From the sequence record OR339795: a DNA stretch of 64,000 nt, one strand, 5' to 3'. Positions 35,186 through 35,956 of the stretch are shown one piece after another. Position 1 is the stretch's first letter, and every line of letters begins with the position of its first letter. Origin of the DNA: Escherichia phage phi456. A model generated the notes under the pieces. It saw only the letters and a list, made by a program, of their open reading frames with translations. It searched no databases and had not been told where the DNA came from. Both the position numbers and the translations under genes were made by a program.

Positions 35186-35692
35186 TTGAGTATTTTCAAT
35201 AAACACGCACACCAGGAACGTCCGTACATCGTCATAGTAGATATTGATGGAACGATATCAGAGGCAACGGAAGACAGGCTGCATTTACTTCCACCACCTG
35301 GCAAAGGTGCATTAACAGAGCACTGGAACGAGTTTAACCTTGCCTGTGACACTGATGCTCCCATCACTCCAGTTATTGATATGGTGCGCCAGTTGTCCAG
35401 CATTTACACGCTCTGGTTTGTAACCGGGCGCTGTGAGATAGCCAGGGATAAAACACGAGCTTGGTTGCGTAAGCACGTAACAAACGGGGCTGAGCCTTTG
35501 CTATCTATGCGTCCTGCCACCGATGACAGAAATGACGGCCCAGCAAAGATTGATCTCCTTAAGAAAATTGGTATAAGCAAAATTGCGTTCGCGCTGGAAG
35601 ATAAGATTGAAGTGGCGCATGTTTTCAGGAGGCACGGCGTGCTTACGTTAATGGTCAGGGAGTATGAAAATGCGCTTCTTCATCAACAATAA
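35186..35692 (+). CDS. HAD-superfamily phosphatase-like protein
   Basis: 168 aa with motif I VIVDIDGT near the N-terminus. Confidence 0.5.
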   Translation: MSIFNKHAHQERPYIVIVDIDGTISEATEDRLHLLPPPGKGALTEHWNEFNLACDTDAPITPVIDMVRQLSSIYTLWFVTGRCEIARDKTRAWLRKHVTNGAEPLLSMRPATDDRNDGPAKIDLLKKIGISKIAFALEDKIEVAHVFRRHGVLTLMVREYENALLHQQ

Positions 35693-35708
35693 TTGCTCTA
35701 ATAAACCA
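35692..35708 (+). promoter_or_regulatory. C1 operator-like site
   Basis: attgctctaataaacca, 14/17 consensus match; overlaps the stop of the HAD-like gene. Confidence 0.55.
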
Positions 35709-35790
35709 TGATTTTTAAAAAAGAGAAAGTGAAAATAAAAACATGCCGCAAGGCGCGGCATGTATCCAATCAATCACAGGAGCTGAAAAT

Positions 35791-35877
35791 ATGAACACGG
35801 CATTCAAAATCATTATGGCCGCGATCTATTTCTGGCTGTTCTCTATCACTTTTGGCGGCATCGTCGCGCATGGGTAA
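35791..35877 (+). CDS. 28-aa hydrophobic peptide (single transmembrane helix)
   Basis: MNTAFKIIMAAIYFWLFSITFGGIVAHG preceded by AGGAG at 8-nt spacing; too short for the ORF track. Confidence 0.4.
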   Translation: MNTAFKIIMAAIYFWLFSITFGGIVAHG

Positions 35878-35956
35878 GGGGAGTATATTAGCCATTTGAA
35901 ACCCCACGGTCTCTTGCGGGTTTAATTAAGAACCCGCAAGAAAAACACGAATTGGG

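Follow-up and report, generated by a model that had tools for sequence, protein, structure and literature searches.

A C1-controlled small membrane-peptide gene as the probable first cistron of the pmgT operon in P1-like phage-plasmids

We analysed a 64,000-nucleotide stretch of Escherichia phage phi456 (sequence record OR339795), referred to here as the window, in which an initial annotation had drawn attention to a 28-codon open reading frame (ORF) for a hydrophobic peptide, beside a hairpin and a site resembling an operator of the C1 repressor. Comparison with phage P1 and its relatives shows that the peptide is no free-standing locus and places it as the first cistron and leader of an early operon known as pmgT or 'hea'. 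Our preferred reading, to which we assign a probability of about 0.7, is that a C1-repressed promoter drives an mRNA that begins with a stem-loop, that the first cistron of this mRNA encodes an inner-membrane protein whose helix is under selection, and that accessory genes come next in the operon and have been lost in the window.

The proposed sequence of events is as follows. In a lysogen, C1 would bind the operator at 35692-35708 and block the promoters that overlap it, a step established for P1 Op88 and inferred in the window. On derepression, transcription would start at about 35741-35744, so that the mRNA would open with the hairpin or have it very near its 5' terminus, where it probably protects or marks the transcript. 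The CCAATCAATCAC-AGGAG stretch that follows would remain single-stranded, and ribosomes would make a 28-residue single-pass inner-membrane peptide, its N-terminus probably inside. Because the next start codon lies 10 nt beyond the stop codon in P1, and overlaps it in relatives, ribosomes leaving the peptide gene would also pass to the accessory genes behind it, a set that varies between elements. An inverted type IC hsdMSR set has taken the place of these genes in the window, leaving an orphan peptide gene that now reads antisense into hsdR. Our best guess is that the peptide is a non-essential accessory protein, its helix acting on a component of the host membrane during early lytic growth.

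The peptide gene and its diverged relatives

The ORF begins with ATG at 35791 and ends with TAA at 35875-35877. An AGGAG sequence (35778-35782), separated from the start by an 8-nt spacer, serves as the ribosome-binding site (RBS), and residues 7-25 of the product are uncharged (mean Kyte-Doolittle hydropathy 2.1), so the good RBS and the single-helix peptide of the initial annotation are both borne out. In P1 and P7 the ORF is unannotated. There, its TAA is followed by GGGGGATGCATG, which contains the RBS and start of pmgT. Since these stand directly after the stop codon, with the pmgT start 10 nt on, the small ORF reads as an unannotated first cistron of the Op88 (pmgT/'hea') operon. A three-way alignment of the window, P1 and P7 shows hardly any difference in the leader and the 28 codons, with one synonymous change. 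PGAP annotates a 44-residue version (WP_001312275.1) in the near-identical plasmid pHFQ1, starting from the ATG at 35743. This start was rejected: it falls within the hairpin stem, lacks an RBS and has no in-frame counterpart in JK004. Because of these defects, the start of the 28-residue form is the credible one.

Diverged relatives were found through Pap and protein databases. They comprise Cronobacter phage JK004, whose Pap is 71% identical, and the metagenomic contigs L180-L182, L183 and L184. All share the order pmgS/pap, C1 operator, -35 and -10 elements, hairpin, a motif of the 5' untranslated region (UTR) and ATG, and all carry at the same position a homologue of 37-53 residues (48-53 residues in JK004 and four metagenomic contigs). 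Over their first 24 or so residues these proteins can be aligned with the window peptide: four positions (M1, K6, A11 and W15) never change, and elsewhere one hydrophobic residue is exchanged for another. Over the first 25 codons, the window and L183 differ at 7, 3 and 14 sites in the first, second and third codon positions, respectively, with a proportion of synonymous differences (pS) of 0.80, which is saturated, and a proportion of nonsynonymous differences (pN) of 0.19. Among the 53-residue forms, the ratio of nonsynonymous to synonymous divergence (dN/dS) is 0.22-0.39 at dS of 0.4-0.8, and exactly 53 codons are kept. A strong, conserved and properly spaced Shine-Dalgarno sequence is present in every lineage. 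Because synonymous sites are saturated and replacement sites are not, the comparison identifies the 28-codon frame as a genuine gene, evidently translated and under purifying selection in diverged P1-like elements. The initial annotation had left it to be seen whether relatives conserve the frame; they do conserve it, and under selection, so the doubt it had raised on this point falls away.

The longer forms carry a hydrophilic C-terminal tail that P1 lacks and of which L184 retains a 9-residue remnant, YQNEDAPKK, resembling YQNDAP of L183. Since the tail is dispensable, the conserved and selected part of the peptide is the membrane helix rather than the tail.

In the 48- and 53-residue forms, the stop codon of the ORF overlaps the ATG of the next gene. 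This arrangement would also suit a cis-acting leader ORF, in which translation itself loads or couples ribosomes to the next gene and the peptide has no function. The RBS of pmgT at the stop codon, 10 nt before the pmgT start, fits such a role, as do predicted folds of P1 in which the ORF is base-paired, through its 3' half, to the start region of pmgT, and a roughly fourfold drop in constraint on the ORF after hsd replaces pmgT (see below). However, coupling alone would not demand a membrane helix, and residues (among them the four invariant ones) and hydrophobicity are kept although synonymous sites are saturated. The prediction of the coupling helix is itself inconsistent between runs, and the 17 haplotypes vary too little. 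We regard a functionless leader as unlikely. An attenuator leader peptide was considered separately and rejected, given the gap of 10 nt from stop to next start in P1, the overlap in relatives, and a search that found no plus-strand terminator.

Within the E. coli P1 lineage the picture is different, and here the evidence does not help the gene reading. Identity to P1, P7 and other Punavirus genomes is 94-98% over 35150-35881, a region that also matches about 950 plasmids, and from operator through ORF stop the window is 97-98% identical to P1 and P7. Two sets of loci were collected, 85 found through the peptide and 91 found through the hairpin alone. Because the peptide-anchored set favours intact peptides, the count of intact frames was repeated on the hairpin-only loci, where about 86 of 88 informative loci keep the frame. 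The DNA itself hardly varies, so an open frame in this lineage cannot settle whether it is a gene. Nucleotide diversity is 0-0.015 from the hairpin to the first 35 nt or so of pmgT; pap has values of 0.02-0.07 and the main part of pmgT values of 0.1-0.5, which makes the stretch of leader and ORF the least diverse patch within 2.3 kb. From 35789 to 35835 there is no polymorphism at all over 47 nt, including 15 third-codon positions, in 85 loci, whereas third positions of pap show free variation. Such invariance is more than purifying selection for the peptide sequence would account for by itself. Recent recombinational homogenisation or an overlapping constraint at the nucleotide level is possible. 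A scan of species-representative genomes returned 2 loci only, both from Escherichia.

Operator, promoters and 5' stem-loop

Coordinates of the features discussed here are collected in Table 1. The operator-like site that the initial annotation had noticed at 35692 proves to be a true C1 operator, labelled 'OpmgT, former Op88' in the GenBank annotation of P1 and Op(hea) in that of P7. Its sequence, ATTGCTCTAATAAACCA, agrees at 14 of 17 positions with the asymmetric 17-bp consensus of P1 C1 operators, ATTGCTCTAATAAATTT, and it overlaps the promoter. The window contains 9 operator-like sites, where 0.32 would be expected by chance. It also encodes the repressor: the c1 product matches the equivalog model NF041318 over its full length (E = 1.9e-184), so that operator and repressor belong to the same replicon. 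Alignment finds the operator kept in JK004 and L180-L183.

Table 1. Features of the window, with strand and source of the assignment.
Feature	Coordinates	Strand	Evidence or remark
pap, 3'-phosphatase/HAD-PNKP, last gene of the pmgR-pmgS-pap operon	35186..35692	+	ORF list, homology
C1 repressor operator = P1 Op88/OpmgT, P7 Op(hea)	35692..35708	+	alignment with annotated protein_bind features, AF234172 and AF503408
second predicted promoter P2pmgT	35693-35721	+	P1 annotation
predicted sigma-70 promoter P1pmgT	35708..35736	+	transferred by alignment from P1 GenBank annotation (a prediction there)
hairpin ACATGCCGC-AAGGC-GCGGCATGT	35741..35763	+	begins near the predicted transcription start
conserved 5'-UTR motif CCAATCAATCACAGGAG, including Shine-Dalgarno AGGAG	35766..35782	+	alignment
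28-residue single-helix membrane peptide gene, MNTAFKIIMAAIYFWLFSITFGGIVAHG	35791..35877	+	ORF list, homologues in same position
recombination junction, end of P1 homology and start of type IC hsd	35881..35882		homology; in P1 the pmgT RBS and ATG stand here
second inverted repeat, 11-bp stem, 8-nt loop TAATTAAG	35912..35941		part of hsd cassette
hsdR, type IC (EcoR124-like) restriction subunit, 1038 residues	35957..39073	-	Pfam EcoR124_C, HSDR_N, SWI2_SNF2
c1 repressor, acting in trans on the operator at 35692	45807..46658	-	NCBIfam NF041318 phage_rep_C1

In the P1 genome OpmgT is overlapped by two predicted sigma-70 promoters, and pmgT lies 180 nt downstream. Operator and predicted promoters, as annotated in AF234172 and AF503408, line up with the window base for base. 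The P1pmgT promoter, which overlaps the operator, has in the window a -35 element ATGATT (TTGATT in P1), a 17-nt spacer and a -10 element GAAAAT. In the diverged relatives the -35 reads TTGATT or TTGTTT, again followed by a 17-nt spacer and a -10; in JK004, L180 and L183 both the -35 and the spacing are unchanged. The window and its near-twin pHFQ1 carry rare alleles in this region, namely C at 35706 (2 of 85 loci), A at 35708 (3 of 85) and A at 35721 (2 of 85). The A at 35708 weakens the -35 from TTGATT to ATGATT, and the 3' end of the operator reads CCA where TCT otherwise stands. Upstream, pap is 92-98% identical to pap of P1 and P7, and its stop codon abuts the operator. The gap between pmgS and pap (35113-35186) contains a further perfect hairpin of at least 9 bp, at 35134-35160.

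The hairpin before the ORF is present as the initial annotation described, although its stem has 9 bp and not 8. The arms ACATGCCGC (35741-35749) and GCGGCATGT (35755-35763) pair perfectly around a 5-nt loop, and folding of the region gives z = -3.1. About 1.4 perfect 9-bp hairpins would be expected per 64 kb of random sequence, and the window has about a dozen. A lone hairpin of this size is therefore unremarkable, and its significance comes from comparison with relatives. Across about 170 relatives of the P1 lineage it is near-invariant. Diverged relatives have a different hairpin in the same place, for a total of four stem sequences including that of the window. The others, from JK004, L180/L181 and L183, are GGCCGC/GCGGCC, GGCAGTCAC/GTGACTGCC and AAGGCCAC/GTGGCCTT, and are mutually unrelated. 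Stems of L180 and L181 differ by compensatory changes, and in RNAalifold analysis of the relatives 6 of 11 consensus pairs are changed on both sides. When the region from -10 to ATG is folded for all six lineages, each shows one dominant hairpin 4-7 nt past the -10, with RBS and AUG unpaired.

Between hairpin and ORF lies the conserved 5'-UTR motif, which is invariant or nearly so in the window, P1, JK004 and L180-L183 between diverged flanks, and which is unpaired in every fold computed. Its consensus is CAATCA(A)TCAY[AC]GGAGC. Written as CCAATCA(A)TCAC[A/C]GGAGC (35766-35782 in the window, 3565-3582 in locus L179, with equivalents in L180, L181 and L183), it is more strongly conserved across diverged lineages than the coding sequence on either side. 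The conservation exceeds what a Shine-Dalgarno sequence needs; the motif may enhance translation, or an RNA or a protein may bind to it. A separate observation concerns the loops. The three hairpins outside the P1 lineage (L179, 3540-3548; L180, L181, L183) have in common, despite unrelated stems, a 9-nt loop of similar sequence (ACGCTATCA, GCACTACCA, GCGCTTCCA), which may be recognised by something; the P1 loop is the 5-nt AAGGC.

When the minus strand is read, TTTTTATTTT comes after the hairpin, which in both the window and P1 is scored as an intrinsic terminator (35763-35731). This, together with a small and hydrophobic product, invites an interpretation as a type I toxin-antitoxin locus, in which a cis-antisense RNA ending at hairpin and T-run would block the RBS of a membrane toxin. 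The minus strand of 35728-35880 does fold better than shuffled sequences (z = -2.6), and conservation of synonymous sites is unusually high in the P1 lineage. The proposal is unsupported, however, because no sigma-70-like promoter for the antisense RNA was found on the minus strand of the window or P1. The best -10 candidate, CATAAT (35817-35812), has no -35 and is lost in L183 and JK004. The T-run is gone in 5 of 5 diverged relatives examined (JK004, L180-L183), though hairpin and peptide persist; the gene is already under a protein repressor; and the product matches no Pfam toxin family. An Rfam scan at a permissive E-value found no family at threshold. Its best result, GcvB, scored 20 bits against a required 42 over the hairpin and T-run, and is read as a chance match to the terminator-like part. 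We judge a toxin-antitoxin locus highly improbable.

Because the T-run is not conserved and the position of the stem is, the hairpin is best read as a plus-strand, 5'-proximal mRNA stem-loop, apparently conserved as structure and lying at or next to the predicted 5' end. In the window, and only in the E. coli P1 lineage, it could speculatively serve in addition to stop read-through from hsdR, as the inverted repeat closer to hsdR has no U-run.

Recombination junction and hsd cassette

The match to P1 breaks off at 35881, four bases after the end of the ORF. Sixty-three loci end at this base, and 19 continue as the window does; other junctions, in L184 and in pmgT-type loci, are 1-5 nt away. 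Beyond the junction the window has, on the minus strand, hsdR-hsdS-hsdM and then phd-doc, in the place of pmgT-humD of P1. Convergent with the peptide gene, hsdR has its stop codon at 35957-35959, and its product carries the annotation HsdR in pHFQ1. According to the P1 record, DNA downstream of EcoDXXI hsd and R124/3 hsdR is 96-98% identical to this stretch of the window. Eight hypervariable regions have been described for P1-like phage-plasmids, among them the interval pmgT-humD (PMC9603915), and in a CRISPR interference (CRISPRi) screen pap, pmgT, pmgU and pmgV were non-essential for lytic growth of P1 (PMC10695390).

The initial annotation had also listed a second inverted repeat, before the hsdR stop. 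The repeat exists, with arms TCTTGCGGGTT (35912-35922) and AACCCGCAAGA (35931-35941) 15 nt past the hsdR stop, but it belongs to the hsd cassette and so falls outside the unit of operator and peptide. It is near-invariant in 26 hsd-type loci, and a stem change in 2 of them is uncompensated. No U-run adjoins it on either strand, and terminator prediction did not call it.

At least three downstream modules join within 1-5 nt of the ORF stop: the pmgT set, the inverted hsd cassette and a direct humD-phd-doc arrangement. The junctions lie at 35875-35882 in the window, 3085-3125 in L184 and 3225-3240 in L001. In L184 the stop codon has been replaced, giving the 37-residue form whose tail matches the 48-residue protein of L183. 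The 3' end of the ORF is a recombination hot spot at the left edge of hypervariable 'region 8'.

About 280 plasmids carry only 35798-35881, which is the ORF without its first two codons. The rows listed, together with mobility typing, suggest that these plasmids are mostly of IncF type; they come from E. coli, Klebsiella and Salmonella. In the two IncF plasmids inspected (L177 and L178, 4001-4084) the fragment abuts IS1 beside hsdR. We read it as a probable relic, the hsd cassette having left a P1-like element along with its flank.

These observations bear on whether there is a gene at all. The leader could instead be non-coding DNA, preserved as an anchor for recombination where the variable region begins, with an incidental open frame. 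The least diverse patch in 2.3 kb does lie right at the hypervariable pmgT border, several modules join within a few bases of the stop, and the IncF plasmids have a 5'-truncated passenger copy beside IS1 and hsdR. Such an anchor would not produce the coding signature of 7, 3 and 14 differences by codon position, dN/dS of 0.2-0.4 with exactly 53 codons kept at dS of 0.4-0.8, or a strong, correctly spaced Shine-Dalgarno sequence in all lineages, and we consider it very unlikely. A broader proposal combines both roles: the peptide would found a new family of early membrane proteins whose helix hits a target in the host inner membrane upon derepression (causing, for example, a division block, phage exclusion or altered membrane potential), and its invariant coding stretch of leader plus helix would double as a fixed left anchor for swapping cassettes such as the pmgT set, the P7 set, type IC hsd and others. 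This is speculative, and we think it unlikely as a whole.

Under our preferred reading, of a membrane-protein gene heading an accessory operon, the fate of the gene after loss of that operon can be followed in the hairpin-only loci. These form two main groups, 57-66 of pmgT type and 21-22 of hsdR type, the window included; shared ancestry is uncorrected in the values that follow. Diversity of pap is 0.043 in the pmgT type and 0.049 in the hsdR type. The corresponding values are 0.007 and 0.030 for the ORF, and 0.038 and 0.070 for operator plus promoter. Amino-acid changes occur in the peptide of 2 of 66 pmgT-type loci and of 10 of 22 hsdR-type loci, where they include G22D, G23D/S, A10T, T20I, S18F, N2S and G28R. 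Since the ORF varies about fourfold more while pap diversity is equal between groups, this suggests relaxed constraint on peptide and promoter in hsd-type contexts, the window among them. The peptide gene of the window is probably an orphaned remnant.

The hsd cassette of the window itself appears damaged. On the minus strand, 39195-41345 holds a 356-residue Methylase_S remnant (39195-40265) and then a 326-residue transposase of the IS5 family with DDE_Tnp_1 and DUF772 domains (40365-41345), followed by hsdM at 41629-43191. In pHFQ1 hsdS is intact at 1239 nt. Because an IS5-family element appears to interrupt hsdS, the type IC restriction-modification system of the window is probably inactive. 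The closest database match is pHFQ1 (L003, NZ_AP023428.1), an IncHI1B/MOBH plasmid in which bcsC, a group II intron and IS1 copies stand beside P1-derived genes. Given these neighbours, the P1-like part may be a mosaic or a defective remnant, not an intact phage-plasmid.

Weight of the evidence and comparison with known systems

Several points weigh against a C1-controlled peptide gene that heads the operon. P1-lineage DNA is almost invariant even at synonymous sites, so its open frame is uninformative. The diverged sample is small, at five lineages, and alignment with the 53-residue forms rests on 4-7 identities plus synteny. The pmgT promoters and the transcription start are predictions. The rare substitutions in the -35 and in the 3' end of the operator mean that the Op88 operator and promoter, and hence expression, may be weak in the window plasmid. 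The stem-loop may stabilise the mRNA, as in ompA, a suggestion drawn from its position only. The literature searched gave no transcript, translation or phenotype data on the ORF, and the P1 RNA-seq and CRISPRi papers make no mention of it.

Family searches add little on function, and the roles as toxin, holin-like factor or exclusion peptide that the initial annotation suggested are speculative. Scans of the 28-, 44-, 48- and 53-residue forms against Pfam, NCBIfam, PHROGs and PADLOC matched no family (best phrog_27041, E = 0.16), and no toxin, holin or defence family was matched by the peptide in Pfam, NCBIfam or PADLOC. When 1.84 billion representative proteins were searched with a profile, 8 came back, all from the peptide's own family, and a word-indexed protein search with the window ORF returned only homologues at least 93% identical. 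A role as holin or antiholin was rejected: the gene stands behind an early promoter under C1 control instead of a late one, it is flanked by pap and by either pmgT or hsdR, no lysis genes adjoin it, and a charged tail is missing from the 28-residue form.

Phage P1 is a classic model, and phage-plasmids related to it are common among Enterobacteriaceae. Four elements of the region were already known: its operator, the predicted promoters, the junction of hsd with P1 and the hypervariable region. What appears to be new is the assignment of the 28-codon frame, so far unannotated, to a conserved and selected family of small membrane proteins with no counterpart in the family databases, the reading of the hairpin as probably a structurally conserved mRNA element, and the clustering of module junctions to within a few bases of the ORF stop. 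If real, the gene extends the C1 regulon by one conserved small membrane protein and offers a concrete, cheap target for the study of early small membrane proteins of phages. It would also mark exactly, to within a few bases of its stop, the left boundary of one of the eight hypervariable regions at which P1-like elements exchange cargo, type I restriction systems being one example. In the window plasmid the gene is a probable orphaned remnant, hence of modest practical importance.

The nearest known arrangement is P1 Op88 (AF234172), with P7 Op(hea), which shares with the window its operator, promoter spacing, hairpin, RBS and all 28 codons. In P1 the ORF is followed by pmgT, whereas in the window it is followed by the inverted hsd cassette, and the window has the rare substitutions in operator 3' end and -35. 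The P1-flanked type IC hsd loci EcoR124I, EcoDXXI and EcoprrI provide the second comparison. As in these, hsdR of the window has the EcoR124_C domain and the cassette sits between the Op88 leader and phd-doc; unlike them, the window has an hsdS that an IS5-family element appears to have split. Work by Tyndall et al. in Mol Microbiol in 1997 reportedly deals with where the flanks of type IC hsd loci came from and to our knowledge does not treat the 28-codon frame as a gene.

For the 5' stem-loop, the parallel is the ompA 5' UTR, whose stem-loop is said to stabilise the mRNA in E. coli (Emory, Bouvet and Belasco, 1992). Both have a stable hairpin within a few nt of the 5' end, which is a predicted one here, with structure conserved over sequence and the RBS left free. 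Unlike that of ompA, the hairpin of the E. coli P1 lineage also resembles a minus-strand intrinsic terminator.

Among the small proteins of enterobacteria and their phages that span the inner membrane once are the regulators MgrB, AcrZ and MgtS and the type I toxins Ibs, TisB and Hok. The peptide differs from these in matching no family and in its apparent control by a phage repressor rather than a small RNA. It resembles them in its size of 28-53 residues across the lineages, its one hydrophobic helix, its short N-terminus with a lysine, and its strong RBS.

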